The translations under genes and the position numbers were made by a program. A stretch of 64,000 nt of DNA from a virus (Duplodnaviria; Heunggongvirae; Uroviricota; Caudoviricetes), in the IMG/VR virus record IMGVR_UViG_3300028840_008157; one strand, written 5' to 3'. Positions 6,515-36,339 of the stretch are shown here, piece after piece (within the stretch, counting starts at the first letter, position 1; every line of letters starts with the position of its first letter). The notes beneath the pieces were generated by a model. That model worked only from the letters and a program-made list of their open reading frames with translations, did no database searches and was not told where the DNA came from.

Positions 6515-6517
6515 TCC

Positions 6518-10597: not shown

Positions 10598-10598
10598 C

Positions 10599-11558
10599 TC
10601 AAACCTCGTAGGCTGACGACACGCTGACGTCGTCGAAGTTGGGCGTTACCGTCAGGCAATATCCAACCGAGTAGTAATCGTTTACCTGCTCTATCGCGCC
10701 GGAGAAGCCGCCGGCCTCGACGAGAAGATTCGACCCGTGCCCGACCATGAACTGTCTGAAGCCAGAGAACCCGGAAAACGCGGGGTCTCCGCCCTTGGCC
10801 CAGGCGTAACTCGACAGCATGAGAGACGCCCTGCCCGGGACGAGGATCGCTACTTCGCCCGACGCCAAGTCCTGGGCGGTCGTCCCGTCTGCGCCTCTCG
10901 TGCATGACTCGAACGAGTCCTCCGTTCGATAGTCGTACCAGATGAACTCCTGGTTCGTAACGTGGCCGACGGGCGATCCTCCCAACGACGCGTCGACGAA
11001 AGGCTCGTAATCCTTGTATAGCTCGCCGCTCGAGCACGACCCGCTGAACGACTGCACGTTCGTCGTGCAATGGTCCGTCGTATTGACGGCGTTGAATTTA
11101 GTCATGTACCCGCGCTTCGGGAACAGGCTCGCCAGCGGGCACGAGATGCTCGAGTCGGACGCCCCCACGGGGCCCGTGATTTCGGCGCTGGCCACGCCGG
11201 CGGGTATTGGTATGCGGCCCCCCTCGATGACGTATCCAGCGACCGACGTGAGCAACCCGTCGTCGGCGATCCTCGCCAGGAGGTTCTCCACCTCCGAGAT
11301 GACACCAACGAGACCGCTCGTCGCGAGGCTCTCCCCTGACCATCCGGAGAAGGAGGAGAAGCCCGAACCGTCAAAATACCCGCTGAAGCCGCTAGCCTCG
11401 GAGCCGGCCGTGCCGACCAGGAATCTTTCGATGGCCCTGATTTCGCGATGATGCCTGTTGTATTCCGTAGCGTTGTAAATCAGCGGGCTGCCGTCCACCT
11501 CTGCGGACGTCTCGCGAGCGAGGTCTTTAGGCATGACTCGTTCCGGGAAGTACGCCAT
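10599..11558 (-). CDS. MAYFP-family paralog 1 (319 aa), GFSG-rich fibre-like protein
   Basis: N-term MAYFPERVMP...NATEYNRHHREIRAIERFL shared with the two next genes. Confidence 0.7.
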   Translation of the reverse strand: MAYFPERVMPKDLARETSAEVDGSPLIYNATEYNRHHREIRAIERFLVGTAGSEASGFSGYFDGSGFSSFSGWSGESLATSGLVGVISEVENLLARIADDGLLTSVAGYVIEGGRIPIPAGVASAEITGPVGASDSSISCPLASLFPKRGYMTKFNAVNTTDHCTTNVQSFSGSCSSGELYKDYEPFVDASLGGSPVGHVTNQEFIWYDYRTEDSFESCTRGADGTTAQDLASGEVAILVPGRASLMLSSYAWAKGGDPAFSGFSGFRQFMVGHGSNLLVEAGGFSGAIEQVNDYYSVGYCLTVTPNFDDVSVSSAYEV

Positions 11559-12808
11559 CAGGTGGTACCTCCATCGGGTTCTTCCATGCCCTTCGAGTTG
11601 GGTTGCATGTCCATCTCGGGCTGCTGCATCTGAGAGCCCACGAGGGTCGCGTGATAATTAACGTCGCCATAGGTCGGGACAAACGTGCCGTAATTGAACA
11701 CGTAAACGTCTCCCGTGGCGGCTTGCCGGAGCCTCATTCCATCCATCGGATCGAAGGCGTCCCTGGTCGTCCCGGCGATGGAAAGCGTCAGCGAGAGCCT
11801 GCCGTAGAAGACGGGGATGACGTACGCGGGCCAGTATTGTCCGTTGACGCCCCTGGTCGTATCGTACAATCCGTCGACAACCGCGTTGGCCTCTTCCCAC
11901 GTCAAGACGCCTTGCAAAGCGTAGGACACGTCGTTTGACTCGAGATAGTAGGACCCATCATCCCTCTGTCGAAGCAGCCCAAGGCCGCCCGTTAGGTCGG
12001 CGAAGCCAGTGAAGTCGGCGTCCGTCTGGAGAACCCTGAATAGGGCGGCGCGCCGTTGAACCTTCCACGCCAAGTCGGTCATGGTCCCGTACAGGCCGAG
12101 TATCTTGATCTCGTAAACGTCCATCCTCCTCCAGGCGGCGAAGTGCCTCGTGAAGAAGGCCCCGTCCTCGGCGTAGGCCGTCGTTATCGCGCGATGCACG
12201 GAGGTGTCATGCTCGACGTCCCCCGGATAGTCGAGCAGGTTGTTCTTGGTGGTCATGGCGGCGGCCGGCGACAACGCGTGCGATCCGGCGTACGTTCCTC
12301 CGTATCCCCTCTCGCATCCCTCGAAGGACTGCGTTGTCTTGGAGGAATACCTTATCCATTCCACGTTCGTGAAGCCGACCCTTTGCGCGTCGCGCTCGTC
12401 CATCTCGTTCAGGATGGATATGACGCCCTGATCCGGGAATCCAGCCGTCGAGGAGACCGTGATGCTAGAGTCATTCGATCCGGGGACCGTCAAGAGGAAC
12501 GTCCCCATGCATGGCTCCGGGAATATCACCCTGTTGCCAGAACGAACCATTCCCGAGGATACCGAGATGCCTCCGGCGGGATCGACCAGCGCGTTCAACT
12601 TGCTGATGACTGCGTTGGCCCTTTCCAGAATTCCTGCGGCGACGCCGGTCCCGGCGGCGTACAGGTCGCTGGCCCCGACGAACTCCTCGATCGCCCTGAT
12701 CTCCTCGTCGTGCGTGTTGTACCTAGGGGCGGTCATGGTCCCGCGACCCGCCAACGGGGACTGTTCTTTGGGCGTTAATGGCATTATCGCTCGCGGGAAG
12801 TAAGCCAT
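11558..12808 (-). CDS. MAYFP-family paralog 2 (416 aa)
   Basis: Track ORF 11558..12940 trimmed to internal MAYFPRAIMP start (44 aa in), which forms ATGA overlap with stop of upstream gene; conserved HDEEIRAIEEF. Confidence 0.7.
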   Translation of the reverse strand: MAYFPRAIMPLTPKEQSPLAGRGTMTAPRYNTHDEEIRAIEEFVGASDLYAAGTGVAAGILERANAVISKLNALVDPAGGISVSSGMVRSGNRVIFPEPCMGTFLLTVPGSNDSSITVSSTAGFPDQGVISILNEMDERDAQRVGFTNVEWIRYSSKTTQSFEGCERGYGGTYAGSHALSPAAAMTTKNNLLDYPGDVEHDTSVHRAITTAYAEDGAFFTRHFAAWRRMDVYEIKILGLYGTMTDLAWKVQRRAALFRVLQTDADFTGFADLTGGLGLLRQRDDGSYYLESNDVSYALQGVLTWEEANAVVDGLYDTTRGVNGQYWPAYVIPVFYGRLSLTLSIAGTTRDAFDPMDGMRLRQAATGDVYVFNYGTFVPTYGDVNYHATLVGSQMQQPEMDMQPNSKGMEEPDGGTT

Positions 12809-13983
12809 CAGCAGGATTCCTCCCCGGGCCTTAGCGGCGCGACCTCGTCCATGGTCTTCACCAGGACGGCCTGGTATTGCGCGTACGCCACGTGCCCGTC
12901 CTCGTTCCACGTGCCGGAGAACCCGCTCGGCGCGGTCCACCCGCGGAACTTGACGCTTCCGTCAGACCTGAGATAGCATTCGGCCTGCGCGATGTCCTCT
13001 CCTATGCAGCGGAGCAGCGTCGGCGAAACCTGAATGGACAGGCGTCCCTTGAAGACGAGATCCTGTGGCGCGTGCTGCGTTGGCGTCGATCCGAGCTGGG
13101 CGCGCCGAACGTTGAGGATTCGATTGTTGCCCGCGTCGAGTCCGGCGTAGAAGAGTATTTCCACGTTCTGGGCCTGCGCCGACGCCATCCTCTCGGCAAG
13201 CCTGTCTAGGACGTACTCCGGAACGATCGAGGTCGTCCCGGAGGCGACCGCGATGTCGTCCAGGTAGTACAGCCCGCTGAACCCGACGTACCCGCTGAAC
13301 CCGGAGAACCCAGAATAACCAGGAGGCGTGTCTTCCTGGGCGATGCTCGTCGGTCCAATCACGTTCGTGGGGTCGGGTATTCCGGAAGAGTCCGGCACGT
13401 CATGGAAAATCATGTTGGCCGAGTCGTTGATGATGGTCACGTATCCTATTTCCGGCATCCCAGAGACGTCCGCCAGCGTGACGTAATCCAGGTCGGCGGA
13501 CGGCATCTCCTCGGGGAACGTATGGGGGATGTAATCCCCAAGCGTCGTGATGGGCCAGCTTGTCGGGAAGACGATCTGTCCCGTCGATCCGCCCAGGACG
13601 TCGTTGCGGCAAGAGACGGTCCCGCTCGTCACGAGGACGAGCCCTTCTCGTATCGCGGATAGACGCGCGAAGATGTCCTGCAACGCGTCCATCAGGTTGT
13701 TGGTCGCCCCGGCGCATCCTGACGGCGCGGGGTAGCACCCGGCGGCGGCGGAAAATCCCTCCACCGACGAGAATCCCGTCGCCGTCGAGAACCCGCTTGA
13801 GGCCGCGCTGTAGCACAACCCGGGGAACATGGGCCGTCGGACGCCCAACGTCCGTTCGATCGCCCTGATCTCCTCGTCGTGCTTGTTGACGTCGGAGGCG
13901 TTGAGGATGTACTTGTTGCCGTTCACGTCGGCGGACTCGTCGGCGAGGCGAGAGGGCATGATGGATTCGGGGAAGTAGCTCAT
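12808..13983 (-). CDS. MAYFP-family paralog 3 (391 aa, MSYFPESIMP)
   Basis: Conserved N-terminus NKHDEEIRAIERTLG; GFSGFSGYVGFSG tract. Confidence 0.7.
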   Translation of the reverse strand: MSYFPESIMPSRLADESADVNGNKYILNASDVNKHDEEIRAIERTLGVRRPMFPGLCYSAASSGFSTATGFSSVEGFSAAAGCYPAPSGCAGATNNLMDALQDIFARLSAIREGLVLVTSGTVSCRNDVLGGSTGQIVFPTSWPITTLGDYIPHTFPEEMPSADLDYVTLADVSGMPEIGYVTIINDSANMIFHDVPDSSGIPDPTNVIGPTSIAQEDTPPGYSGFSGFSGYVGFSGLYYLDDIAVASGTTSIVPEYVLDRLAERMASAQAQNVEILFYAGLDAGNNRILNVRRAQLGSTPTQHAPQDLVFKGRLSIQVSPTLLRCIGEDIAQAECYLRSDGSVKFRGWTAPSGFSGTWNEDGHVAYAQYQAVLVKTMDEVAPLRPGEESC

Positions 13984-13992
13984 GCTCCGTCC

Positions 13993-16900
13993 TTATGGGG
14001 GCGTCTCGTTACCGCCGGTTTCCTCGGCCGACTTGTTCTTGTTCGCGTCGCATGGGTTCCCGCCATGCACGACGACCCTTGATAGCCCGTCGGCGTGGAA
14101 TACGCCGTCGTCCCTGTAAACGTGGAATCGACCCTTGAACGACCTGTACGCGTCGGCCTCGAATCCGGTCACGCCCTGTTGCTCGACGATGGCGCCGGCC
14201 TCGGTATCCGTCTCGTTGACCCCGATGGCCTTGTCCTCGGACTCCCCTACGGCGATCATCTCCTGATTGAAGACGCTATGGGAACCCCTGGTTATGACGT
14301 CGAAGGTCGGCGGGTGAACCTGGGGTTCGTCCGTGGTGATCCTGATGTAGACGTCCCCGGCCGTCGTGATCGGCCACGATTTATATTTCGGCAACGGCTC
14401 CGTCAAAGCCTCGTCCTTGAAGAAGTCGATCTTGAACCGTGATTCCGGCGCGACGAGGACGACGTTGTCGCATATCGGATACGACACGTTGAACTCGTCC
14501 TGAACCTGGACGCATACCGTCTTGAGGCCGTTGCCGCAGGTCAGCGACCAAGGGACGATCATCGTCTCGAGGTCTGGACCCGGCTTGAACGCCTGCCATG
14601 GGCTCAAGATGCCGTCCTCGTTGTAGGCGCGCCAGAACATGGTGCCAGGGGCCGTTATCCTCAGGCATACGTCGGGGACGTTGGTGTACTCTATGTCCGT
14701 TCCCGTCTCGCAATCCTGTATCGACATCGAAGCCCATGACTCGGTATAGGTCGGGGGGTCCAATGCCTGGAAGTGGGGCCTGCCGATCGACTCGCCCTCC
14801 CTCAGGCAGTAGATGCCGTATACTTCCTCGTGATAGTCCGGATTCTCCAGGGCGTGGCGATCGTCGTACCAAACGATGCCTATGCCGCCCGCCAAGTCGA
14901 CGTCGATGTCCGGATGAAGGGACGCGGATGGACCATGGGAGACTAGCATGTCCTTCCCGCCCTGGGCGCTACTGTACCATTCCAGCGCGGAGGTGACGTA
15001 GGAGGACATGAAGATGGCGGGCTTCGCCTGTCCTAGCCTGTAGTCGTGGTATACGACGCGTAGGTTCTGGTTCTTGTCCGCGACTATCCTGGGGAAGAGA
15101 CTATCGCCAGAGGCCGCTGTCAGCCGCAAGTCTCCGCCCCGTTGCCCGCTGCTTCGCCACGTCGCGCCCGTCTTGGACGCGCTCATGATCTCGAAATCCC
15201 CGAAGCGGTTGTCGTGCCATACCACCGTGATACGTTCCGCGTTCCCAACGTAGTTCACGGCCAGGTCCGGCATCAACGCCTCGACGGGGCTGTCGGTGAC
15301 CTTGATCGGGTTCAGGAAGCGTTGGCCGCCCCCGGTCGAGAAGGTATAGAACACGTCCGCCTTGCGGTCGCTCGTCTCGGTCGATTGCCAGACGAGATGA
15401 GCCTCCCCCTCGGCGTCGACCTTCACGTTGGGGAATTTGCCGGACGCCCCCCTTAGGCCGTGGTTGGTGACGCGCGTTTCTGCGCCGCCCATCGTCGGGA
15501 CGCTCCACGTGGCGCAATCCCCGTCATAGCGGGCGACGTATACCTCGTCAGAACCGGTCCTGTTCGAGTGCCACGTCAGCCAGATGTTGTCGAAGTCGTC
15601 GATGTCCATTCTCGGGTTGACGTTGTCCCCCTCGGTAGTCAACTGGAACGGGAGCGTCGCCCTGTATTGGTTATTGCACTCTATCTCCGTGACGGTGGCC
15701 CCGAGGTCTGGGGCGAACAACAGGTCCTCGGCCTTGATGGCCTCGTCCTGCGTCGGCACGCTCCCGATCTCGGTAACGACAGGACCATCGTCGGACCAGG
15801 TGACGAGCCATATCTGGCCATTGGCCGACGTCCCTATGATCTCGCCGACGATGTCCGTGAAGTTCTCTGGCGCCGCGACGAACAGGGCGTCGTTACCGCT
15901 GTCCAGCAGGTACAGGTTGCGGTTGGCCTTCACGATCTCGAAGGCCCTCATCATCGTTCCAACCTCGTACCTCTCGTAGCTCTCGGCCTCGACATCGAAT
16001 ATGTAGATCGTCCCGGTGGGATCGCTCGAGATGACGCCAGATGATATGATCTTGCCGGCGAACCCGCCATAGCGGTCCTCGTTCGGAACCACCATCGCGC
16101 CCCACAGGCCGACGGGGGCCCTAATCACCTTCGTGGCGGAGCCGTCTGAGGCTATCCTCCATAGGTTTCCCGTGCTCGTCACGGCGAAGAGGTCCCCGTC
16201 AAGATGATCAATGCCGGTAACGGTACCCGGGTCCTCAAGCGTGACCCATGGCTCCGTAACGACGGTGCCCTCGGAGGAGACGCTGACGATCTGGCCCGGG
16301 AGGTGCGATCCCACGTAGCTCTCGCCCTTTACGAACCCGTTCGCGCTCTCCTGGATCACGCAGAGCGGCACGTTCCCTTGCAGCTTCTCCAGATCGGAGA
16401 ACGGCGACTTCTCCCCGGCGCCGTCCAGTAATTCCAGGTTGTTCCTTGAGACGCCACCGGAATCGAAGTCGTAGCTGGCCGAGTATATGCCTTGGGCCGA
16501 CACCTTCAGCGTCGGCGTCGCTGGGACGATCTTGTTCAGGACGTATATCGCGCTGGAATATCCCAGCTCCCCTGGCGTTCCCCTCGTCTGTTTTGGCGCG
16601 TCGGCTATCGGTATCCAGCAACACGTCCCCCTAGGGGGCTCCTCGTAGGTGGCTCGAGCGGCCAGGAAGTCGTTGATGATGGGTATCTCGCTGGGGTCAT
16701 CGGTATGATATATCCACCTGCCATAGGATGGGATTTTGGGCCACTCGAAGAACTCTACGATGGACGTCAGGCCGTAGGGGTTAGCTGCTCCGGTCCGATA
16801 TATTGTCTTGCCCTTGGGGATCGCCTGTCCAGCCGAATAACCTCCCCCGAAGGTATATCCCCCGTGCCAAAACTTGTCAGCCGGCCTATTCCTTGGTGGT

Positions 16901-19896
16901 ATGTACGGCTTCGAGAGCATGATCCTGTTCTCGAGCTCGTAGTAGTCCATCTGGAGGGAATCCCCGATGTCGAACAGTTTGGACATCTCGAACACGGAGA
17001 CGGCGCCCCCTCCGTTGCCCTCCGTGATGCTTCCCAGATAACCGTCGTAAAAGATGGGCGCAAACAATCCCCTGAATGGAGGCAGCGTCCAGGGGACGAA
17101 ATACTGCTCGAACAGCCCCTCCTCGGTCGTCGACCAGATCACGTTTCCGGGCGCCGCTCCCTGGTAGATGATCTGGAAGTTAGGCGCGGGTTCCACGGTC
17201 GCGAAGTACATGTGGCCGGCGGCGAGCGTGAGCTTGTCCTTGGCGAACGAGTATATCGTTACGTTCTCGCCGGGCTCGAACCGGAACGTCTCCTCGTATA
17301 TTTTCTCGGAGGTGACCTGTGCCGACGTGACCTGTTCGGGGTCGAGCCTGTAGTCCGGACCCCTCCATATCTTCAGCACGAAGTCGTACGTCCTGGATGA
17401 CGCCTCCGTCGCGCCGGACTTGGGGACGAGAAGCGCGCAAGGATCGTCGTCGCACCTGAGCCTGCCAAGGATGAACTTGTAGTCGCCCTCGAGGTCTTCC
17501 TTCTTGAACACGAGCCTCAACCATTCTCCGGACGGGTCGTTTACGAAGACGTTCGTGTATATAGTCCCCGTCGCGTCCCCCTCGAGAGTAAACCTCGTGG
17601 GGCCATCCTCGTACTTGACCTGGGACTCTGATACGACCCGGCTGATGTCGACGGGATCGATGAAACTCGGCGGCAACGGCTTCTTCGGCGCCGGGACGAG
17701 CAACTGGTTGGACGCCTGCGGCTCCGGAAAGACGCGAGGAGCGAACTTGGGATAGATCGGCATCATGAGATGCCTCATCCTGACCGACTTGTCTGGAGGG
17801 GACATGAACATGACGCCGACGTTCTCGAAGTCGTAACGCTGGCCGAAGTCGCCCGCGCCGACGATGGAATTCGTGGACGTGGCCACGTAGGATGGGTCCG
17901 AAGTGATCCCCAGCTCTGACGCCTGGGCGTCCCACGCCTCCCTGTCGGACGACCTGCTGACCCCGGTCCACAAGCCGGACATGCTCGTCACGGTAGTCGT
18001 TCCCGTCGTTACGACGGGCGTCGTCGACGGGGCACCGGGCGGCAACTGATCGGGCTGTTCTTCGTCGACGCCGTCCTCGTAATAGAGCGCGGATTGCGGG
18101 ACGACCTGCCGGGGGGTTGATGGGCTGCTCCATTCCAACATCGCGACTCCCCGGCCGCCGATGTCGTAGTAATCGACGCGGATGTCGTACTTCTGGCCCG
18201 CGACCATGGGGATGTCGACGGTCGATTTCTCCATGCGCTCGTGATCGAACCACATGTCGACGTAGAGCGTCCCGTTGACCCAGAGGCGCCCCCCGTCGTC
18301 CGTCGTCAGGTAAAACTTGTAGTTCTCCGTGTATTGAGCCTCGACCTGGCCGCTCCATCGGGCGGAAAACGATCCGCGTGCCCCGGGGAACGGCATCGAT
18401 CCGTTCCAAGTGAAGTTGACGACCGAATCGACCCTTGAAAGGCGCAGGTCATCGAAGACGGTCGACGGGGCTCCCGTCGACGGGGCTCGCGTCGGGCCGT
18501 CGTAGAAGTATTGCCCCAACAGGCCGTTGCCCGTCGTCAAGGCCGGATCGGGTTCCGATCCCGTTACCGAAGCCGGGTCTTCGTAATCGTAGGTGATGAC
18601 CTCCTCGGTCTCCGTCGCGCCGAGATCGAGGAACAACGAATGAGTCCCCGTGCGGGTCAGCAACGTCCCGGACGACTGCGACGTCGGGAGGGTCATCTTC
18701 GAGTCGCCGTAGGAGAAGTAGTCCCCCACGTCGCCCGTCGAGACGTAGTTGGTGATGCTTCCGTCCGATAGCACGACCCTGACCGCGCCGGGAGTCGTGC
18801 TGGGAATCTCGGCGAACCCCCCTTGGGCGTGCGCTCGCCTGTTGCGACAGCCCAGGCGCGGCCCGACGCTTTCGGGATATACCTGCGAATACCACAACTG
18901 GAAACGGGTCTCGTCACCGTAGGGCTTGCTCTGCCATACGACGTGGAAGCGACCCTGGCTGTCCGCGACGACGTCGGGGAACATGGACGTCTCGAGGTCG
19001 CAGGACAATCTGAACTCGCAGGCCATCGCCTCGCATTGGTCCTCGGCGGCGAGGACGGAGAAGACGAAGGCGACGTCGCTCTGCGCGGTTGGCTTGTAAC
19101 CGAGGTCGAGAACGTTCACGGCCAGGACGGACTGAACGGTGAACTCCTGCTCGGAGTTGGCCCCAGTCTCGATCCTGATCCTGGTACCGCTCTGTACGCC
19201 GAGACGATAGAAGTCCACGTCCGCGTCCGTGCTTAGGACCACGGTCTGGGAAGTGGCGTTGACGTCCAGGATGCCCTGCGCGAGCCTCGCCACGAGGTCC
19301 GATTCGACGGTCTCGGCGGCGTTGTCGTCGCTGGAGCATCTCTGGCTCAGGTCGATGATCCCGCTGGGCGAGGTTGGTCCTCCGGACGCCCCCGAGAACC
19401 CGGAACATTCAGAGACCACTGGCCGAAAGCTGACATCGGAAATCTCGTAAGCCTCTCGCACGGCGCGGGCGCTCATTTGCGACGGCAAGATGCGCCCGTA
19501 TATCTCCCACGTGCCGTCCCTGTTGTCGTGCCAGAAGACGCCACGACGACCTGCCGGCTCGAACGCGACGGCAGGATGCAACGAATTACAGGCATGGGTA
19601 CTGATGCGTTGTTCGTTCTGGCAGAAACCCGCAGCCGCGACCTCCGCTACCTGTTGCCCGACGGCTTCCTCGACGAGGTCGTCGGCCTCGGCCTGCGCGT
19701 CGGCGGCCGCCTCCTCATCCGGGGTGGACTCCTCCTGCGTCGTCGCGGGAAGCTCTCCGGAGAGCTCGAGCGTTTGGAGCGCCTGTATCGCGGACTCGGC
19801 CTCGCTGACGGCGTTCTCGAAGAGCGCGTCGTCTATGTCCGAGGCCCCCGCGAGGAAGCGGTCTATCGCGGCAATGTATTCGTCGAAGCTCGCCAT
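13993..19896 (-). CDS. Giant (1967 aa) multidomain protein: PA14 domain (approx nt 17950-18450), many beta-propeller W-x-D-x-R-x-G..IY blades, C-terminal lectin/fibre-like regions
   Basis: PA14 signature region SARWSGQVEAQYTENYKFYLTTDDGGRLWVNGTLYVDMW...QKYDIRVDYYD; repeated VVWHDNRFGDFEI, VVYHDYRLGQ, IVWYDDRHA, LTWHSNRTGSDEVY; ATG at 19894-19896. Confidence 0.8.
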   Translation of the reverse strand: MASFDEYIAAIDRFLAGASDIDDALFENAVSEAESAIQALQTLELSGELPATTQEESTPDEEAAADAQAEADDLVEEAVGQQVAEVAAAGFCQNEQRISTHACNSLHPAVAFEPAGRRGVFWHDNRDGTWEIYGRILPSQMSARAVREAYEISDVSFRPVVSECSGFSGASGGPTSPSGIIDLSQRCSSDDNAAETVESDLVARLAQGILDVNATSQTVVLSTDADVDFYRLGVQSGTRIRIETGANSEQEFTVQSVLAVNVLDLGYKPTAQSDVAFVFSVLAAEDQCEAMACEFRLSCDLETSMFPDVVADSQGRFHVVWQSKPYGDETRFQLWYSQVYPESVGPRLGCRNRRAHAQGGFAEIPSTTPGAVRVVLSDGSITNYVSTGDVGDYFSYGDSKMTLPTSQSSGTLLTRTGTHSLFLDLGATETEEVITYDYEDPASVTGSEPDPALTTGNGLLGQYFYDGPTRAPSTGAPSTVFDDLRLSRVDSVVNFTWNGSMPFPGARGSFSARWSGQVEAQYTENYKFYLTTDDGGRLWVNGTLYVDMWFDHERMEKSTVDIPMVAGQKYDIRVDYYDIGGRGVAMLEWSSPSTPRQVVPQSALYYEDGVDEEQPDQLPPGAPSTTPVVTTGTTTVTSMSGLWTGVSRSSDREAWDAQASELGITSDPSYVATSTNSIVGAGDFGQRYDFENVGVMFMSPPDKSVRMRHLMMPIYPKFAPRVFPEPQASNQLLVPAPKKPLPPSFIDPVDISRVVSESQVKYEDGPTRFTLEGDATGTIYTNVFVNDPSGEWLRLVFKKEDLEGDYKFILGRLRCDDDPCALLVPKSGATEASSRTYDFVLKIWRGPDYRLDPEQVTSAQVTSEKIYEETFRFEPGENVTIYSFAKDKLTLAAGHMYFATVEPAPNFQIIYQGAAPGNVIWSTTEEGLFEQYFVPWTLPPFRGLFAPIFYDGYLGSITEGNGGGAVSVFEMSKLFDIGDSLQMDYYELENRIMLSKPYIPPRNRPADKFWHGGYTFGGGYSAGQAIPKGKTIYRTGAANPYGLTSIVEFFEWPKIPSYGRWIYHTDDPSEIPIINDFLAARATYEEPPRGTCCWIPIADAPKQTRGTPGELGYSSAIYVLNKIVPATPTLKVSAQGIYSASYDFDSGGVSRNNLELLDGAGEKSPFSDLEKLQGNVPLCVIQESANGFVKGESYVGSHLPGQIVSVSSEGTVVTEPWVTLEDPGTVTGIDHLDGDLFAVTSTGNLWRIASDGSATKVIRAPVGLWGAMVVPNEDRYGGFAGKIISSGVISSDPTGTIYIFDVEAESYERYEVGTMMRAFEIVKANRNLYLLDSGNDALFVAAPENFTDIVGEIIGTSANGQIWLVTWSDDGPVVTEIGSVPTQDEAIKAEDLLFAPDLGATVTEIECNNQYRATLPFQLTTEGDNVNPRMDIDDFDNIWLTWHSNRTGSDEVYVARYDGDCATWSVPTMGGAETRVTNHGLRGASGKFPNVKVDAEGEAHLVWQSTETSDRKADVFYTFSTGGGQRFLNPIKVTDSPVEALMPDLAVNYVGNAERITVVWHDNRFGDFEIMSASKTGATWRSSGQRGGDLRLTAASGDSLFPRIVADKNQNLRVVYHDYRLGQAKPAIFMSSYVTSALEWYSSAQGGKDMLVSHGPSASLHPDIDVDLAGGIGIVWYDDRHALENPDYHEEVYGIYCLREGESIGRPHFQALDPPTYTESWASMSIQDCETGTDIEYTNVPDVCLRITAPGTMFWRAYNEDGILSPWQAFKPGPDLETMIVPWSLTCGNGLKTVCVQVQDEFNVSYPICDNVVLVAPESRFKIDFFKDEALTEPLPKYKSWPITTAGDVYIRITTDEPQVHPPTFDVITRGSHSVFNQEMIAVGESEDKAIGVNETDTEAGAIVEQQGVTGFEADAYRSFKGRFHVYRDDGVFHADGLSRVVVHGGNPCDANKNKSAEETGGNETPP

Positions 19897-21315: not shown

Positions 21316-21498
21316 TCATCTCCCGCAACATTTCTTGTACTTCTTGCCGCTCCCGCACGGGCAGCGATCATTGGGGAGGACCTTCTTCCCCTGCCACTTG
21401 ATCTTCATCCCGGGGTATACCTTGACCCCGTGAAACTCCTTCTTCTTTCCCTTGTTATGCTCGCAATCCTTCCCGCATTCGTGTTCTTCCATGGTCAT
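21316..21498 (-). CDS. SEC-C motif (SecA C-terminal zinc-binding-like) mini-protein, 60 aa
   Basis: C-terminus RCPCGSGKKYKKCCG matches SEC-C metal-binding motif; Lys-rich. Confidence 0.55.
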   Translation of the reverse strand: MTMEEHECGKDCEHNKGKKKEFHGVKVYPGMKIKWQGKKVLPNDRCPCGSGKKYKKCCGR

Positions 21499-21637
21499 CG
21501 CCTCGCAGCTTCATCATACGGCACAGATTCGTTCCTTCGGCGAACACGTCCTTTGGGATTGAAGACCGGAATTATGACGGGCAACCTGGCGCTCATTGAG
21601 GTATCATCCTCTCCAAGGGGAGATCATACAAGGATTC
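21499..21637. promoter_or_regulatory. Divergent intergenic region between minus-strand SEC-C gene and plus-strand SLOG operon; presumed divergent promoters
   Basis: Only sizable non-coding gap here; genes diverge on both sides; no motif confirmed. Confidence 0.3.
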
Positions 21638-22177
21638 ATGGATGAGCGGATCGAGGTTTGTTGCAGCAAATGCGGGTTCGTCACCATCGTCGACCCGGAC
21701 GCCTGCTCGTGCTACGGGTGGCCCAAATGCTGTGGTGAAACGATGATACCGAGGATTGGACCGATGAGGATCGTCATCGCCGGCTCAAGGTCGATCACGG
21801 ATTACGAGCTCGTGAGGAAGGCCATCGAGGATTCCGGGTTCCTGATCGACGTCGTCATATCCGGGGGCGCCCGCGGAGTGGACAGGATTGGCGAGGAGTG
21901 GGCGCAGAAGAACGGCAAGCCGATCAATAGATTCCTCCCGGACTGGGAGAGGTACGGTAAATCCGCCGGATTCATCCGCAACGACCTGATGATTCGCAAC
22001 GCGGACGGGGCGATATTCGTTTACGACGGGACGTCGAGGGGGACCGCCCATACGATATCGTTGGCCAAGAGGAAGGGCATCCCCACCTACATTCTCGACA
22101 CGTCGAAGGAGACGCCGGATGGGAAAGAAGAAAAAGAAGATCGACCCGATCAAGAAGCAACTGGTCCGGGCGTCTAG
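21638..22177 (+). CDS. SLOG-superfamily protein (DprA/DUF2493-like Rossmann nucleotide-binding domain) with N-terminal Cys-rich zinc-ribbon-like segment
   Basis: IVIAGSRS...VISGGARGVDRIGEEWA resembles DprA/DUF2493 GxARGxD motif; track start 21596 appears to be TTG, first ATG approx 21638. Confidence 0.65.
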   Translation: MDERIEVCCSKCGFVTIVDPDACSCYGWPKCCGETMIPRIGPMRIVIAGSRSITDYELVRKAIEDSGFLIDVVISGGARGVDRIGEEWAQKNGKPINRFLPDWERYGKSAGFIRNDLMIRNADGAIFVYDGTSRGTAHTISLAKRKGIPTYILDTSKETPDGKEEKEDRPDQEATGPGV

Positions 22178-22376
22178 CTCGGAGGATCAAGTCCTGAGCG
22201 ACATGAGCACTAACTTCCCGCTGGACGAGATCACCCAGGCGTACGAGAAGGGCATCGTGGCCGTCGACGACCACCTCACGAAGAACGAGGCCATCATCGC
22301 GAGGTCGCTCCTCGCGATGGGGATGGGGCAATACCTGAGGTGCGTGGCGGCCAAGCTCAAGGAGGAGAAGAAATGA
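22119..22376 (+). CDS. Small Lys-rich protein (85 aa), translationally coupled to downstream gene
   Basis: Stop overlaps ATG of next gene (ATGA) with GGAGGAG upstream; non-junk composition. Confidence 0.4.
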   Translation: MGKKKKKIDPIKKQLVRASSSEDQVLSDMSTNFPLDEITQAYEKGIVAVDDHLTKNEAIIARSLLAMGMGQYLRCVAAKLKEEKK

Positions 22377-23281
22377 GCATGATACCGGTCATCTTCGAGA
22401 TGGAGACGTCCGACCCCGACGACTTCATGACGCTCCTGTGGCTCGCAGACAACCCCAAGATCGACCTGAAGGCCGTCGTCGTGACGCCCGGGTCGAAGGA
22501 CCAATGCCAGCTCGTCAGGTGGGGCCTCGACCATTGCGGGCAGCGCGAGATTCCCATCGGGGCGCTTCACGGCCCCGAATGGTGGGACACGCAGGACGGC
22601 AAGAAGCTCAGAGTCTCGGGGTTCCATTATCCCACCTACGGGGAGGAGATCAAGAAACACGACGTGGGATGGGTTTGCGACGGGCCGGAGCTGATCGACG
22701 AGCTGGCCGAGTACAATATGACGGTCCTCGTCGGGTCACCGCCCAAGAACCTCGGGGCGGCGTTCCGCAGGTCGGACAGGGTTTACGTCAGCAGGTGGGT
22801 CCAGCAGGGCGGCTTCGCGGGGGACAACATGGTTGAGAAGCCCCTCGAGAAGTTCAAGGGGCGCCTGACGTGCCCCAGTTTCAACCCCGGAGGGGCCCCT
22901 AACCAGGTCATGGATCTCTTGCAGAACAAACGCATCAGCGTTCGGTTGTTCGTCTCGAAGAACGTCTGCCACGGGGTGACCTGGACCCACAAGATGCAGT
23001 CCGAACTCAAGTCCCGGATCAAGAACCGAAGGACCGGCCTCGAGACGATGATCAAGGGGCTAGATACCTACCTGGAGAAGAAGGGCGTCGCGAAGGCCAT
23101 GCATGACATCGTGGCGGCGTGTTGCGTCGTCGACGACTCGGTCTGCGAGTTCAAGAAGGCCGAGATATACCGCGAGAAGGGCGAGTGGGGGGCTCGCCCG
23201 TACTCCCCGACGGCGTTTACGGTAACGAAGATATCGGTGGGATTCGACGAGGAGAAGTTCTTGTCGGTCTTGTCGTCCTGA
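22373..23281 (+). CDS. Nucleoside hydrolase-like protein (inosine-uridine preferring NH fold, divergent)
   Basis: N-terminal acidic cluster IIFEMETSDPDDFMTLLWL aligns to IUNH DxDxxxDD Ca-binding motif; start trimmed to ATG 11 codons into GTG-initiated track ORF. Confidence 0.55.
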   Translation: MSMIPVIFEMETSDPDDFMTLLWLADNPKIDLKAVVVTPGSKDQCQLVRWGLDHCGQREIPIGALHGPEWWDTQDGKKLRVSGFHYPTYGEEIKKHDVGWVCDGPELIDELAEYNMTVLVGSPPKNLGAAFRRSDRVYVSRWVQQGGFAGDNMVEKPLEKFKGRLTCPSFNPGGAPNQVMDLLQNKRISVRLFVSKNVCHGVTWTHKMQSELKSRIKNRRTGLETMIKGLDTYLEKKGVAKAMHDIVAACCVVDDSVCEFKKAEIYREKGEWGARPYSPTAFTVTKISVGFDEEKFLSVLSS

Positions 23282-23494
23282 TCACGTCAACCCGGCGATG
23301 ATCATCTCGAACAGCTCGTTCTGCTCGTCGTCGTCGAACTCGTCGTCGCTTCCCTCGTCAGGAAGCAGCCTGATATAGATCCAGTCCGCCGCGTCCCACG
23401 CGTCCTCCCCGTTGGGGTCCTCGAACGCCTCGCGGGCTTCCTGGAACAACTCGTCGCATTTCTTGGACTGGTACAGCTTTTCGACCCTACTCAT
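23282..23494 (-). CDS. Small acidic protein (70 aa)
   Basis: MSRVEKLYQSKK...DEGSDDEFDDDEQNELFEMIIAGLT; internal ATG of long junk-headed ORF. Confidence 0.4.
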   Translation of the reverse strand: MSRVEKLYQSKKCDELFQEAREAFEDPNGEDAWDAADWIYIRLLPDEGSDDEFDDDEQNELFEMIIAGLT

Positions 23495-23505
23495 CGTCCC
23501 TCCTC

Positions 23506-23877
23506 CTACCTTGTGATCGTTATCCGTTTCGCCTTCTTGAGCCGTAGCAGGCTCTTCCTGGACAGCGTCTCGGGGAACTTGAACTTTCCGGGGGCGAGCT
23601 CGTGCTCGTACTCCTCCCCGAACATGAACATGTGATCCATCAATTCCTGCAACTCGCAGCAAAGGAACTCGCGGATCGAAACGCGCTCCCCTCCATGGCG
23701 CCTGTGTGGTTTGGCGGGCCAGCAACAATACAGGACGAACGCCTCTTCCAGGTCGCCGCCCTCGAGGAGGTCGATGAACTTGAGCATCTCCCTCTTCTCG
23801 TACTTGTAATAACCGACCTTCTGGATGCGTTTGCGCTCGGCCTTGAGGTCGATCTCGACGGTCTTCTTCAGGATCAT
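23506..23877 (-). CDS. Hypothetical protein (123 aa)
   Basis: Clean ORF, RBS-like AAGGGAGA upstream. Confidence 0.5.
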   Translation of the reverse strand: MILKKTVEIDLKAERKRIQKVGYYKYEKREMLKFIDLLEGGDLEEAFVLYCCWPAKPHRRHGGERVSIREFLCCELQELMDHMFMFGEEYEHELAPGKFKFPETLSRKSLLRLKKAKRITITR

Positions 23878-23904
23878 CGCGTTCTCCCTTCGCGAATCTT
23901 CGTT

Positions 23905-24102
23905 TCACTCGCAGAACCTCCTGAGAACCTCATCCTGGACGTCCTCGACGGCGAGCCTGATGGCCATGCGGGTATCATGGTGCCTTTCCCTGACCCAGGT
24001 CGGGATTTCCCCGTCGGGCCACGTCCATTCCTCCTTGAAGTAGAGGACGATCTTCGCCCTTTCGCGGAGCTCGGCGTCGGGCATCTTGGTCAATTCGCTC
24101 AT
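23905..24102 (-). CDS. Small hypothetical protein (65 aa)
   Basis: Internal ATG (MSELTKMPDAELRERAK...) of longer alt-start ORF. Confidence 0.4.
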   Translation of the reverse strand: MSELTKMPDAELRERAKIVLYFKEEWTWPDGEIPTWVRERHHDTRMAIRLAVEDVQDEVLRRFCE

Positions 24103-24106
24103 GTGA

Positions 24107-24487
24107 TCACCTGGCGAGGCGCATGGATATCTGGAGCGCCTCCAGCCTGTTGACGCGCCGGTACGTCTTGCGCCTTCGTCCGCTGTTCGGCTTGATCCAG
24201 TACACGGCGTGCCAGAGTTGGTCCCATGCCACCTTCTTAACCTCGACATACTCGCGATCATCCTCGAAGATCCTGCTGCCCGGGTCGCAGGCCGCACGAC
24301 TCTCGAACAGGCTCCCCTCGACGATCTTCTCGTAGCAGCGCACGGCCGTCATGCCGTTGCACGGCTTGAGCTTCATGATGCGCTCGATGTCGCGCCATGA
24401 CGTCCCGCAGTCCCGAAGATTGACTACCTTCGCGCACGTCTCCGGGTCGGCCTCGCTGGCCGTGGGTTTTCTCCTCGGCATCTTCAT
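24107..24487 (-). CDS. Hypothetical protein (126 aa), Cys-containing, basic
   Basis: Clean ORF MKMPRRKPTASEADPETCAKVVNLRDCGTSW... Confidence 0.5.
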   Translation of the reverse strand: MKMPRRKPTASEADPETCAKVVNLRDCGTSWRDIERIMKLKPCNGMTAVRCYEKIVEGSLFESRAACDPGSRIFEDDREYVEVKKVAWDQLWHAVYWIKPNSGRRRKTYRRVNRLEALQISMRLAR

Positions 24488-24526
24488 CCTCCTTACACGA
24501 TAATTGTACCTCGTGCAAGGAGGATG

Positions 24527-24727
24527 TCAACCTCGCGATGATCCCAAATGTTTGCCGTGCTTGTGAGCCACGCTGAACACGTTCTCGAGGGGATACTTGA
24601 TGATCAGGCCGTCCTTGAGCTGGACGCAGAGCAGGGCGCCCTTGGTATAGACCGCCTCGACCTTCCTGACGACCTTTGGCGTCGAGCTCGATTTGAATAT
24701 TATCTCGATCTTCATGAGGGGGATCAT
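24527..24727 (-). CDS. Small hypothetical protein (66 aa)
   Basis: ORF directly downstream of terminator hairpin on minus strand. Confidence 0.4.
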   Translation of the reverse strand: MIPLMKIEIIFKSSSTPKVVRKVEAVYTKGALLCVQLKDGLIIKYPLENVFSVAHKHGKHLGSSRG

Positions 24728-24776: not shown

Positions 24777-24828
24777 CAGAAGTATCAGTTCTGAGAGCGA
24801 TCCTCGCCCGCCATGCCGCCCCTTCTGA

Positions 24829-24935
24829 ATTTTAGGGCCGTACTCTGTCCCCTGAGTTACCCCCGCTCGAAACCTCCTCTCGCGGAGGGGGCTTCGAGCG
24901 GGGGACGGGATTCGAACCCGCGACCCGGCCTAATG
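24829..24935 (-). tRNA. tRNA-like gene in permuted order: 3' half (anticodon-stem 3' strand GGCCG, T-arm GCGGG-TTCGAAT-CCCGT, acceptor CCCCCGC) lies UPSTREAM of matching 5' half (acceptor GCGGGGG, D-arm ACTC-AGGGGACA-GAGT, anticodon-stem CGGCC, loop CTAAAAT) with 30-nt hairpin linker
   Basis: Hand-folded on minus strand: acceptor 7/7, anticodon stem 5/5, D-stem 4/4 complementarity between the two pieces; no co-linear full tRNA can be formed. Confidence 0.45.
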
Positions 24936-25055
24936 TCAGGAGCGCTGGCTTCTGCGGCGAGGAATAACCTCGTTTGCCTGAACTTGCCAGCTACAACCTA
25001 AGACTCAGCCAGAACTTTAGGGCGCCTGATGACCGTTGCCTCTGCCATTGGGCTA

Positions 25056-25098
25056 CCCCTATGTCAAGTATAGGGGGAGGGAATCGAACCCCCACTGT
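25056..25098 (-). other. Second tRNA 3'-end-like element: T-arm (GGGGG-TTCGATT-CCCTC) + acceptor-like CCCCTAT hairpinned to adjacent ATAGGGG; no co-linear 5' half or D/anticodon arms found
   Basis: Canonical GTTCGATTC T-loop on minus strand; 7-bp stem with 7-nt loop immediately 3' of it. Confidence 0.3.
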
Positions 25099-35700: not shown

Positions 35701-36339
35701 GGGATCGCCCCGGCGCCTGCGAAGGTCAGGATCGTCTCCTTCTTCAAGGACAACATCCCGGAGGAGGCGAGGTCGGCGCAGCGGGCGGTCATGAGGAAGT
35801 TCGGGCAACGGATCGAGCAGTTCCGGTTCGCGGCCACGCACCAGCAGGCCATCGACGGGTTCATGAGCGAAATGGATTGGAGCCGCCACGACTTCCTCGT
35901 CATCCTCGACATCGACGCCGTGCCCACGAGCGACGAGGGAATCCCGTACATGGTCGAGGAGATGAGGAGAGGGCGCCTCGTCGGCTGCGCGCAGGCCGCG
36001 AACCACGGCCATATGAACCGCGACCACGTCTACGTCGGGCCGTTCTGCGTCGGCCTGACGAGGGACGTCTTCGAGGCGCTCGGGAGGCCCTCCTTCCTGG
36101 AGACCGCCAGGTCCGACGTCGGGCAGGAGCTCACGTGGCTGGCGCAGGAGAAAAACGTGCCCGTCTCCATGATGCTGCCGACGAGCGTCGAGGAGCCCCG
36201 CTGGGCGCTCGGCCCGACGGGCAAATTCGGGCTGGGGACGGGATACGGGGTCGCCGGCGTCGAGTTGTTCTGGCACGCCTTCGAGTCCCGGTACCGGACC
36301 GAGCGGTTCGTCAGGAAGTGCAAGGAGCTGCTGGCATGA
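32788..36339 (+). CDS. Giant multidomain glycosyltransferase (1183 aa): N-terminal unknown region, type-I GT-A module, Trp-rich repeat domain, type-II GT-A module, C-terminal unknown domain
   Basis: VVPCMGRLEHL..IVDWSCPEY..CFLDCDMIVS..GGYDGRMEGWGYEDTDF and ISLCTTCKGRLWQL..NVDADNFLGEGF..GGYLESLAPMGHLDNE. Confidence 0.8.
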   Translation: MFLVAKREITEHKGDPEEMKKLLLRDDYLYACFLYSDPLSPLFVHVKPGKARLMADWESNDFWFMEVPTSFLYPSETSLRMGHGASMAHFSRLGWIAEDDAWIENRMPVRQYEQRIQGLLGHFEEKRLLFFGSLDGHDERGETRRSQVKLLETAGFTIVTKSFFPEPTRKLIDVLEDERCCAVLGMDGLSVGCMRDHEVALSAVPYLRVTRTIQNVPFVNPTGRAWVATAQGADVGRAFAEMKASASCGTMSERLLDARDVSLAMRDNWRFFQCLDACCFDSDSALRAAEEIAIRDASIPEAIEGALPGKVLEAEKVDTFMVFDSDGSLLPGRFKIGEVHGASEGRPALLQSLVGEKGLPKNPLISFVVPCMGRLEHLQRALPRLSQQPNSEVVIVDWSCPEYCGDWADKFPRTRVVRVPGQRTFNLSKARNAGAGEARGEWLCFLDCDMIVSPKFATELSKGFKDKSYVSFGTLGSAGHSGMTTCRKADWEAVGGYDGRMEGWGYEDTDFKHRLRLRGLSGVVVDMSLAKHIDHDNEARTRFYDDDQATSHGRNEALSQRKIKDRKKIVGLWKATHSSWKGFLFFDEDGSFSRQAHGDHGSWLLEDGELVLRWAKWPPERLKEKEPGQYAGTFMTLSKEEPLKRKDDESLQYVGDWTVRHDDWKDTISLLRDGTFHRSSVKWEGGTWESLGGRVLLKWDRWGTETANYEDGSLVGDRFVAVRPWRLEHPKISLCTTCKGRLWQLSRTFLGNVRRALEEYDNVEFVLMDYGSQDGLEDWARTKLRKYVDEGIVKYCKLVDDLPWHASKSRNLAHRMASGVILCNVDADNFLGEGFVKKLSFEVGPKKAVRLAGDASVGGRIAVHKDDFFAVGGYLESLAPMGHLDNEFERRLGSNGVRVIHWPSGPLPVENTDAQRAEFCDRSYAECMAHSKKVMDRNPVVNERFQRATVRVNWSRTVELGPERGDVRKKLGIAPAPAKVRIVSFFKDNIPEEARSAQRAVMRKFGQRIEQFRFAATHQQAIDGFMSEMDWSRHDFLVILDIDAVPTSDEGIPYMVEEMRRGRLVGCAQAANHGHMNRDHVYVGPFCVGLTRDVFEALGRPSFLETARSDVGQELTWLAQEKNVPVSMMLPTSVEEPRWALGPTGKFGLGTGYGVAGVELFWHAFESRYRTERFVRKCKELLA

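Follow-up and report, generated by a model that had tools for sequence, protein, structure and literature searches.

Among the genes of large phages that still lack an explanation, those for SLOG proteins are some of the commonest. Computational work predicts that viral YAcAr/YpsA-like SLOG genes cluster with Macro, NADAR, Nudix and DUF4326, and places these proteins in nucleotide- or ADP-ribose-centred conflict systems, with a proposed role in the sensing or degradation of ADP-ribose-type immune signals (Iyer, Burroughs, Anantharaman and Aravind, Viruses 2021, 2022; PMC7824862, PMC9503650). In the ShosTA defence system, purine metabolism is disrupted by ShosT, a phosphoribosyltransferase/pyrophosphatase, and the antitoxin, ShosA, binds DNA (PMC11961720).

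Here we describe a locus in a phage-like genome of ~547 kb (host probably related to Myxococcota), where three overlapping plus-strand genes (positions 21638-23281 of the window, i.e. of the whole 64,000-nt stretch analysed) encode a YAcAr SLOG protein, a Lys-rich mini-protein and a divergent protein of the nucleoside hydrolase (IUNH) fold. Linkage of SLOG proteins with ADP-ribose enzymes had been predicted already, and the new element would be the IUNH-fold partner. As a compact test case, the cassette combines a SLOG protein with an obligatory small partner and with a hydrolase that changes from one sister phage to another.

A three-gene accessory cassette

The layout of the locus is given in Table 1. 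The mini-gene overlaps the 3' end of the SLOG gene by 59 nt in another frame, its stop codon shares the 4-nt ATGA with the start of the IUNH-like gene, and a strong ribosome-binding site, AAGGAGGAG, sits 6-14 nt 5' of that ATG. These overlaps and the ribosome-binding site argue for a joint function of the three products; arguing against it, overlapping starts are frequent between phage genes without functional relation. The GC content at third codon positions (GC3) of 0.75 for the SLOG gene, 0.88 for the mini-gene and 0.86 for the IUNH-like gene is typical for genes of this genome. Together the three form a single accessory cassette, co-transcribed and translationally coupled, at a rearrangement breakpoint. 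From the gene layout, the intergenic region upstream is presumed to hold its promoter; a scan for sigma-70 promoters and terminators gave nothing exceeding shuffled expectation, and this region contains no convincing sigma-70 consensus. In a Megablast search with 15 kb of sequence surrounding the locus, no deposited phage matched.

Table 1. Features of the locus in window coordinates
Feature	Coordinates	Strand	Basis or remark
SEC-C mini-gene	21316-21498	-	PF02810, E 3.5e-10
Intergenic region, 139 nt	21499..21637	.	between divergent SEC-C mini-gene and SLOG gene
SLOG gene	21638-22177	+	ATG start; upstream TTG at 21596 possible
Zinc-ribbon-like Cys-rich N-terminal segment of SLOG protein	21638..21763	+	residues 1-42
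YAcAr (DUF2493) SLOG Rossmannoid domain and acidic tail	21764..22177	+	Pfam PF10686, phrog_289
Lys-rich orphan mini-protein gene, 85 aa	22119-22376	+	GC3, copies in relatives
Divergent IUNH-fold N-ribohydrolase-like protein, 302 aa	22373-23281	+	AlphaFold, Foldseek, profile match
Small convergent ORFs	23282-24727	-	ORF calls
tRNA-like pieces	24813-25094

The small ORF is a real gene. Its 85-aa product has only two relatives among 1.84 billion representative proteins (60% identity in the sister genome L035 and 38% in L037), and a third copy was found in the genome L009 (35%, E 1e-9); all four copies of the gene lie directly 3' of a close SLOG homologue. The mini-protein has no match in Pfam, PHROG, NCBIfam or PADLOC, and a hidden Markov model built from the four copies found none in 243 other loci. 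A programmed frameshift fusing the SLOG protein to the mini-protein was considered and rejected, because the overlap varies from 4 to 59 nt across the four relatives, each of whose mini-genes begins at a start codon of its own.

Much of this had been proposed in the first-pass annotation, made from the sequence alone. Its three plus-strand genes, their coupling through a Lys-rich mini-protein, the GGARGVD-bearing SLOG domain, the Cys-rich N terminus and the divergent IUNH fold were all borne out by the gene calls, gene overlaps, homologues, profile matches and structural models reported here, and its description of an accessory-looking region beside small convergent ORFs and a tRNA-fragment locus agrees with Table 1 and with the variable third gene discussed below.

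The SLOG protein and its relatives

With 58.2 bits (E 7.1e-16) the SLOG protein clears the 28.2-bit family threshold of Pfam YAcAr (PF10686), and it matches phrog_289 at E 1.9e-28. It carries the motifs GGARGVD and SRGT, in keeping with a Rossmannoid SLOG domain, in which strand 2 is followed by a Gly-rich GGxxGxD loop and, further downstream, by an S/T-x-G-T motif. Across 61 sequences, residues G76, G77, A78, R79, G80, D82, S133, G135 and T136 vary little or not at all. The domain is modelled with a pLDDT of 91, the acidic tail with low confidence. In front of it lies a putative zinc ribbon, CCSKCG...DPDAC.C..WPKCCGETM (CxxC...C...CC), which AlphaFold models as small beta-hairpins and a helix (pLDDT 87-95), and which is kept in the homologues P0122 and P0123 as well as upstream of the called start in L035, where the DNA encoding it is left untranslated. 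We found 351 homologues of the SLOG protein, and the family matches 1175 of the 50,697 deposited phage records.

The best PDB folds for the SLOG domain are DprA (3uqz, E 5.9e-4) and ShosA (8zva, E 8.2e-4), followed by LOG-like TT1465 (E 3e-3) and a type-II LOG (E 0.036). DprA and ShosA are both DNA-binding proteins, and phage YAcAr genes typically lie among genes for DNA replication and recombination, with SSB, ThyX, PolB, methylases, ligase and SbcCD-type proteins found immediately beside 80 other viral YAcAr genes. Both facts count against a joint module and agree with another explanation, possible if somewhat doubtful, in which the genes are unrelated cargo sharing a transcript, the SLOG protein and mini-protein serving DNA metabolism (DprA/ShosA-like DNA binding, recombination mediation) and the IUNH-like protein being a host-derived enzyme that salvages bases and ribose from nucleosides. 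PADLOC models point the same way, matching the Rossmann core only of the SLOG domain with ShosA (18.6 bits, E 2.3e-4) and PsyrA (14.9 bits, E 2.6e-3). Against this explanation, the YAcAr domain lacks the extra SAM and winged-helix domains of DprA. The NCBIfam dprA model TIGR00732 gave the SLOG protein 15 bits, its cutoff being 191 bits.

The same ShosA and PsyrA matches, the second rank of the ShosA structure among the folds, and the purine-disrupting toxin and DNA-binding antitoxin of ShosTA (PMC11961720) would also suit a toxin-antitoxin-like or exclusion module of the ShosTA or PsyrTA kind, where the IUNH-like protein would be a toxic effector whose action the DprA-like SLOG and mini-protein restrain or repair. 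We regard this as very unlikely: the PADLOC matches are weak and confined to the Rossmann core, and neither a phosphoribosyltransferase (PRTase) nor a 2-deoxyribosyltransferase partner lies beside the SLOG gene.

The IUNH-like protein and its family

The AlphaFold model of the 302-aa protein (pLDDT 96.6) certainly has the IUNH alpha/beta fold, since all of the top 50 Foldseek matches in the PDB are nucleoside hydrolases, at TM 0.6-0.72. Its Pfam PF01156 score of 24.5 bits lies below the gathering threshold of 34.2, and searches against NCBIfam and PADLOC models gave no match; many members of its family, however, do carry a precomputed PF01156 match, and the family profile reaches IU-NH (1MAS) at E 1.6e-5. 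In that alignment D16/D17, N171 and H244/D245 correspond to D14/D15, N168 and H241/D242 of 1MAS, and the D16-D17 pair, N171, H244 and D245 are invariant in the family. The N-terminal motif, [E/D]9-M-E11-T-x-D14-P-D16-D17, differs from DxDxxxDD by a one-residue insertion and by Glu at the first two acidic positions. Most Ca2+ and catalytic residues are retained, which counts towards a joint module, and we infer that the third gene probably encodes an active, Ca2+-dependent N-ribohydrolase from a bacterial stand-alone family.

N160 and E166 of 1MAS, which we take to be the residues holding the ribose 5'-OH, are replaced by R/K164 and S/T169, the alignment being of moderate confidence at 164. Such a replacement would suit a 5'-phosphorylated substrate and in this respect favours a joint module. 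The altered 5'-OH pocket hints at something other than a plain nucleoside as substrate, and the loss of the canonical Asn and Glu would likewise argue against the nucleoside salvage envisaged for unrelated cargo.

The family has more than 1000 homologues, the best labelled ones in Myxococcota at 60-64% identity. It is present in at least 152 bacterial species, otherwise as a stand-alone gene of Myxococcota, actinomycetes and cyanobacteria, and in at least 22 huge-phage contigs; none of the 50,697 deposited phage records contains it, which counts against a joint module. The viral copies are scattered across the family tree and therefore point to repeated independent capture by huge phages. By inference, the window phage acquired its copy too; in a base-composition test for recent transfer the GC of this gene (0.611) matched that of the window (0.608), so it is fully ameliorated.

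No YAcAr gene lies near the family at 80 bacterial, 22 IMG/VR and 2 other long phage-like contig loci, and conversely the family is absent from the surroundings of the SLOG gene at all 163 other YAcAr loci. Among the loci searched, the adjacency is confined to the window phage, the 104 other IUNH loci being without YAcAr, and neither BLAST clustering nor a count of Pfam domains over 113 viral neighbours and 80 bacterial loci gave a recurrent partner, which again counts against a joint module. The stand-alone habit in bacteria, the miscellaneous neighbours in 20 huge-phage loci and the repeated viral capture all suit unrelated cargo. Against a toxic effector, the stand-alone gene looks harmless in more than 150 bacterial species, has no SLOG neighbour there, and its pairing with SLOG is not conserved.

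One locus departs from this pattern in favour of a joint module: in L005 a 40%-identical homologue is flanked by a PARP and an ADP-ribosylglycohydrolase, a neighbourhood that does not recur at other loci. At another locus, L020, the gene upstream of the IUNH-like gene had a macro-like appearance that Pfam did not confirm.

A further alternative looks to the glycosyltransferase and polysaccharide-modification cluster 3 kb downstream, which the IUNH-like enzyme might serve, e.g. by recycling nucleoside from nucleotide-sugars, with the SLOG gene unconnected. At least 8 glycosyl- or sulfotransferase genes are located at 25.9-36.3 kb and 46-49.5 kb of the window, and sugar-nucleotide enzymes (Polysacc_synt_2, GT2, epimerase) accompany the IUNH gene at a few viral loci elsewhere. 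Such neighbours are present in only ~3-4 of 20 viral loci, however, the bacterial copies are without this context, and between the gene and the cluster lie five small convergent genes and a change of strand, so that we consider this explanation very improbable.

The third position and likeness to known systems

Four related genomes keep the core of the cassette, the zinc-ribbon YAcAr SLOG protein paired with the 85-aa protein, and this conservation speaks for a joint module. What follows the pair is variable. In the sister genome L035 a Nudix hydrolase takes the IUNH position with the same ATGA overlap, and the next-closest SLOG relatives (L199, L200 and L201) adjoin a different Nudix family, with DUF4326 also present in L199 and L201, L200 being too short to tell. 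The Nudix background, scored by motif, is low (1 of 83 and 1 of 26 control loci). This context fits the published prediction that viral SLOGs act with ADP-ribose-processing enzymes, and it speaks for a joint module and against unrelated cargo. The window genome itself encodes ADP_ribosyl_GH, DUF4326 (36 kb from the SLOG gene) and AAA_28 elsewhere in the window, which also counts for a joint module. Across the wider family, a SLOG gene beside Macro, NADAR, Nudix or DUF4326 is rare (~7 of 163 and ~6 of 163 loci), and the window SLOG gene itself adjoins the IUNH-like gene and none of these four.

In the syntenic relative L009 the third position is held by an unrelated gene, conserved in the same phage group and with no Pfam or PDB match, whose counterpart lies ~55 kb away in the window genome. 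This places a rearrangement breakpoint directly 3' of the mini-gene, and the variable third gene may reflect that breakpoint only, a point against a joint module and in favour of unrelated cargo.

The claims of the first-pass annotation that went beyond gene identities fared unevenly. Its placement of SLOG domains in nucleotide-centred conflict systems corresponds to published computational prediction (PMC7824862, PMC9503650). Its proposal that SLOG and a ribosyl hydrolase process a nucleotide together gains from the Nudix and DUF4326 genes beside the nearest SLOG relatives and loses from the restriction of the IUNH pairing to the window phage, while conservation of the trio, which it had asked for as a check, holds for SLOG and mini-protein in four genomes and, taken strictly, fails for the SLOG-IUNH pair (0 of 104 other IUNH loci, 0 of 163 other YAcAr loci).

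We tentatively favour, as quite possible, a cassette in nucleotide/ADP-ribose handling whose third gene is a hydrolase in an exchangeable position. The SLOG/mini-protein pair would bind, or itself cleave, a small ribosyl-nucleotide molecule produced within the infected cell, and the downstream hydrolase would then attack this molecule or its product at one more bond, either base-ribose (IUNH) or diphosphate (Nudix). The cassette would join a phage NAD+/ADP-ribose/nucleotide-handling set (with ADP-ribosylglycohydrolase, DUF4326 and a NadR-type kinase, each encoded at another place in the window) that might dispose of or recycle host-made nucleotide-derived signals or toxins, and a joint SLOG-IUNH role in destroying nucleotide signals is plausible. 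It is unlikely that the IUNH-fold family is a new N-glycosidase class for 5'-phosphorylated or ADP-ribose-type ribosides, captured repeatedly from Myxococcota-like hosts, and that the cassette is a three-part counter-defence module of zinc-ribbon SLOG sensor, mini-protein and exchangeable hydrolase (Nudix in the sister phage) destroying a host immune signal or toxin. The IUNH-like family is in any case a well-conserved, uncharacterised enzyme recurring in huge phages, and identifying its substrate would give a function to a recurrent gene of these viruses; were it an ordinary salvage hydrolase, the finding would be routine accessory cargo.

Among known systems, LOG and PpnN nucleotide N-glycosidases form a catalytic clade of the same superfamily as the SLOG protein and cleave the base-ribose bond of 5'-phosphorylated ribosides, which is the chemistry proposed for the cassette; unlike them, the window SLOG is assigned by Pfam to YAcAr and not to the LOG family, and LOG-type structures rank lower among its fold matches. 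With the IUNH enzymes (PF01156; C. fasciculata IU-NH 1MAS, E. coli RihA/RihB) the third protein shares the fold, the DD pair, Asn168, the His-Asp pair and acidic residues at the first two motif positions, but its identity to them is 14-19%, Glu stands for Asp in the motif, and R/K and S/T take the places of N160 and E166. DprA, ShosA and the window SLOG have the GGxRGxD nucleotide/DNA-binding loop in common, and ShosA, too, has an enzyme of nucleotide metabolism as its partner (PMC11961720); the similarity, however, is limited to E 6e-4 to 8e-4 and a TM of ~0.5 over the core, and the window SLOG has no accessory domains and its locus no ShosT-like PRTase.

There are likenesses, too, to the neighbourhoods of Iyer et al. 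Unlike those, the window SLOG carries a zinc ribbon at its N terminus and is accompanied by an obligatory orphan protein of 85 aa and, in this one genome, by an IUNH-fold N-ribohydrolase, a fold mentioned nowhere in the two papers (PMC7824862, PMC9503650). Like those, it belongs to the same SLOG clade (Pfam YAcAr), lies in an accessory region of a large phage genome, is linked to a small-molecule hydrolase, has relatives that adjoin Nudix and DUF4326, and shares its genome with DUF4326 and an ADP-ribosylglycohydrolase.

Layout of the cassette and its genomic setting

A first-pass annotation had described a SLOG gene, a mini-gene and an IUNH-like (nucleoside hydrolase-like) gene as a coupled trio at 21638-23281, and our analysis bears out its domains, overlaps and coordinates, as listed in the table. 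The three ORFs have no intergenic space among them, AAGGAGGAG lies immediately upstream of the IUNH-like ATG, and an alternative SLOG start, a TTG at 21596, would lengthen the protein by 14 residues. Third-position GC is 0.75, 0.88 and 0.86 in the SLOG, mini- and IUNH-like genes, respectively, and 0.8-0.9 in other genes of the genome; ORFs antisense to the cassette were dismissed as the usual high-GC shadows. On the left the cassette is bounded by a divergent SEC-C mini-gene (60 aa), and on the right by the small convergent ORFs also claimed earlier, of which there are five, the first at 23282 immediately past the IUNH stop. The tRNA-fragment locus reported near the trio corresponds to two tRNA-like pieces, neither called by ARAGORN. 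In the first, a T-arm (GGGTTCGAATCCC) comes first (5'), followed after a 32-nt hairpin by an acceptor/D-arm-like segment; the arrangement resembles either a permuted tRNA or the part of the Y-RNA-like YrlA that is tRNA-like (Rfam RF02553, 27.6 bits, under the 69-bit gathering score, E 0.0015).

Features of the window and of compared loci (positions are those of the sequence named; window unless stated)
Feature	Position	Strand	Remarks
Large gene run	3212-19896	-	headed by the PA14 gene
PA14-domain protein	13993-19896	-	1967 aa
SLOG gene	21638-22177	+	179 aa counted from ATG
Mini-gene	22119-22376	+	85 aa; overlaps SLOG gene by 59 nt in a different frame
IUNH-like gene	22373-23281	+	302 aa; ATG shares ATGA with mini-gene stop
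tRNA-like piece 1	24813-24945	-	
tRNA-like piece 2	25038-25094	-	
ORF with methyltransferase motif	35877-37532		C-terminal class I SAM-methyltransferase motif DAGCGTGE
Low-GC island	36000-38000		GC 0.47 versus 0.61-0.63 flanking
ADP-ribosylglycohydrolase and radical SAM genes	43192-45626	-	PF03747, E 1.3e-64; 489-aa radical SAM protein; one base in common (44157)
tmRNA gene	52321-52681	-	full-length; Rfam 110 bits; ARAGORN tag peptide ANAKNILRLDRSAVALAA
NadR-type AAA_28 kinase-like protein	54505-55014	+	E 1.3e-7
DUF4326 protein	58635-59108	-	E 1.1e-20
244/250-aa gene pair, L009	8776-10264		after the SLOG/mini pair
L278, distant part of the window's genome	127101-137841		of the 546.6-kb contig; 244/250-aa pair beside 735-aa and 2767-aa genes
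DUF4326 - Nudix - (small gene) - YAcAr SLOG, L199	413-2587		metagenomic relative
DUF4326 - Nudix - (small gene) - YAcAr SLOG, L201	13-1869		metagenomic relative
PARP/IUNH-like region, L005	5929-12088		ENA ERZ23495181 scaffold_1, 478 kb

The same three cassette proteins are also encoded on two contigs, one of 546,627 bp in ENA and one of 31 kb in Logan, the latter from another sample. Most simply, the window's genome is that of a huge phage: the window has PHROG matches to virion-structural families and carries DUF7873 (present in 75 phage records), many of its genes encode glycosyltransferases, and a Pfam inventory of 39 further window ORFs returned no core bacterial families, ribosomal included. 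The genome is absent from the deposited phage set and from IMG/VR. The large minus-strand genes probably encode tail or host-recognition proteins, and the syntenic relative L009 has a 1972-aa PA14 protein at the corresponding position. The window also holds a tmRNA gene, and a low-GC island that covers the 3' part of a methyltransferase-motif ORF and looks like a recent insertion. Elsewhere, the radical SAM protein beside the ADP-ribosylglycohydrolase has prokaryotic viperin (pVip) as its top PADLOC match (E 1.3e-7), and the literature ties both DUF4326 and NadR-type AAA_28 proteins to the NAD+/ADP-ribose metabolism of large viruses (PMC7824862, PMC9503650).

The SLOG protein and its mini-protein

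Pfam assigns the SLOG protein to the YAcAr/DUF2493 subfamily (residues 43-106, E 7.1e-16, over threshold), with weaker matches to further SLOG families, among them DprA and cpYpsA; the match to PHROG 289 ('GTP-binding domain') has E 1.9e-28. The GGARGVD loop and an SRGT motif are invariant or nearly so in 61 homologues. Residues 1-42, for which a Cys-rich, zinc-ribbon-like segment had been proposed, carry a CxxC...C...CC pattern that is kept in the three closest homologues, in one of which (L035) it sits in the DNA upstream of the called SLOG start. Since this pattern is conserved and the segment is confidently modelled by AlphaFold, the longer protein with its zinc-ribbon-like head is real. 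Among solved structures, the SLOG core is closest in fold to DprA (3uqz, E 5.9e-4), the antitoxin ShosA (8zva, E 8.2e-4) and LOG-like TT1465; PADLOC gave weak matches only, to ShosA and PsyrA.

The Lys-rich mini-protein matched nothing in Pfam, PHROG, NCBIfam or PADLOC. HMMER, run exhaustively over 1.84 billion representative proteins, detected only two relatives, and tblastn added a third further copy, in L009. All three mini-genes sit directly 3' of a close SLOG homologue (SLOG and mini-protein identities of 76% and 60% in L035, 69% and 38% in L037, and 68% and 35% in L009), which makes SLOG plus mini-protein the conserved unit of the locus. Their overlap ranges from 4 to 59 nt among relatives, a variability that argues against a frameshift fusion and favours simple coupled genes.

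The IUNH-like enzyme and its carriers

Against Pfam IU_nuc_hydro the IUNH-like protein is sub-threshold (24.5 bits, threshold 34.2), and the majority of its more than 1000 homologues have a precomputed PF01156 match. The divergent IUNH fold proposed for it is upheld by a model built from 32 family members (pLDDT 96.6), whose top 50 PDB matches are all nucleoside hydrolases (TM 0.6-0.72, identity 14-19%). The family profile matches Crithidia fasciculata IU-NH (1MAS) at E 1.6e-5, and D14/D15, N168 and H241/D242 of that enzyme correspond to the family-invariant D16/D17, N171 and H244/D245. Unlike 1MAS, the family has Glu at the first two acidic motif positions together with a one-residue insertion, and N160 and E166, which we take to be the residues holding the ribose 5'-OH, are replaced by R/K164 and S/T169. 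Judged from these residues, the protein is probably an active enzyme, a predicted Ca2+-dependent N-ribohydrolase, and a phosphorylated riboside may be what its 5' pocket accommodates.

At least 152 species genomes carry the family, chiefly those of Myxococcota (Sorangium, Enhygromyxa and Nannocystaceae, with 60-64% identity), and also those of Streptomyces, Kitasatospora, Dactylosporangium and filamentous cyanobacteria. It was found on 22 IMG/VR contigs, mostly of 150-536 kb, and two other long phage-like contigs. By tblastn, 1175 of 50,697 deposited phage records contain a SLOG domain and none the IUNH family; in a viral structure library the IUNH fold is confined to eukaryotic giant viruses. 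In a rough NJ tree the window protein is sister to the Myxococcota clade and the viral copies are scattered, which indicates repeated exchange, and as the gene's GC equals that of the genome any transfer was not recent.

Pairing with SLOG proved not to recur. None of 80 fetched bacterial IUNH loci has a YAcAr gene or mini-gene within 5 kb, nor do they keep a neighbour of another kind across taxa; the 24 phage-like contigs have no YAcAr gene within 8 kb, and a Pfam census of 113 neighbours gave no recurrent family around viral IUNH genes. Conversely, neither the IUNH family nor the mini-gene appeared at 83 IMG/VR and 80 metagenomic YAcAr loci. The pair is thus absent from the bacterial and viral IUNH loci and from the 163 other YAcAr loci searched.

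The third position and a possible nucleotide-signal module

What follows the mini-gene varies. L035 has a Nudix gene at the IUNH position, joined by the identical ATGA overlap. L009 encodes a 244-aa protein without assigned function, whose 67%-identical homologue in the window's genome lies at 132.1 kb of the contig, with about 55 kb, including the structural genes, between it and the cassette; the displaced 244/250-aa pair implies a large rearrangement between otherwise syntenic phages, with the mini-gene end as a breakpoint. The next-closest SLOG relatives, L199 at 61% identity and the pair L200 and L201 at about 44% (N-terminal zinc ribbon covered), have a Nudix of a different family one or two genes away, and DUF4326 is also present in L199 and L201 (L200 is too short to tell). 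The DUF4326 - Nudix - SLOG cluster is conserved between L199 and L201, with tRNA-like sequence between genes. In L199 the SLOG protein bears its Cys-rich segment at the C-terminus and not the N-terminus, and the next gene is a conserved Cys-rich one of 160-176 aa that the compared loci L036 and L198 share.

Nudix genes are rare in control loci (1/83 and 1/26, by motif), and, among four or five SLOG lineages of this subclade, two independent Nudix associations plus one IUNH are unlikely to be chance, in a comparison made post hoc. The earlier proposal of a joint nucleotide-signal module, possibly anti-defence, survives in part: Nudix genes in the context of L035 and L199-L201 speak for it, whereas the unconserved SLOG-IUNH pair and the unrelated third gene of L009 speak against it. 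The reading we tentatively prefer is a co-expressed accessory cassette in which the SLOG/mini-protein pair would handle a ribosyl-nucleotide small molecule and an exchangeable hydrolase at the third position would complete its processing, as part of the phage's NAD+/ADP-ribose/nucleotide-handling repertoire. Almost as likely, the genes are independent cargo, namely a DNA-metabolism SLOG pair and a host-derived riboside hydrolase. The varying third gene could be a by-product of the breakpoint. Neighbours in the wider YAcAr family serve replication, recombination and nucleotide synthesis (SSB, PolB, ThyX, methylases, SbcCD-like), and together with the DprA/ShosA fold matches they keep a DNA-metabolism role viable.

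One locus, L005, was the sole one found with the IUNH family in an ADP-ribose context: a eukaryote-type WGR-PARP_reg-PARP gene, two small genes and a 40%-identical IUNH-like gene, with an ADP-ribosylglycohydrolase two genes further on and a patatin gene close by. This locus, too, counts in favour of a functional link; a search for recurrence of its PARP/IUNH/ADP-ribosylglycohydrolase layout found none.

Viral YpsA-like SLOG domains, with Macro, NADAR, Nudix and DUF4326, have been predicted to act on ADP-ribose-derived signals (PMC7824862, PMC9503650), surveys in which an IUNH-fold partner goes unmentioned. The associations seen in the SLOG subclade match that prediction, and the cassette is of a kind already predicted, not of a new kind; it offers a compact test system, and points to an uncharacterised IUNH-like family repeatedly captured by huge phages.
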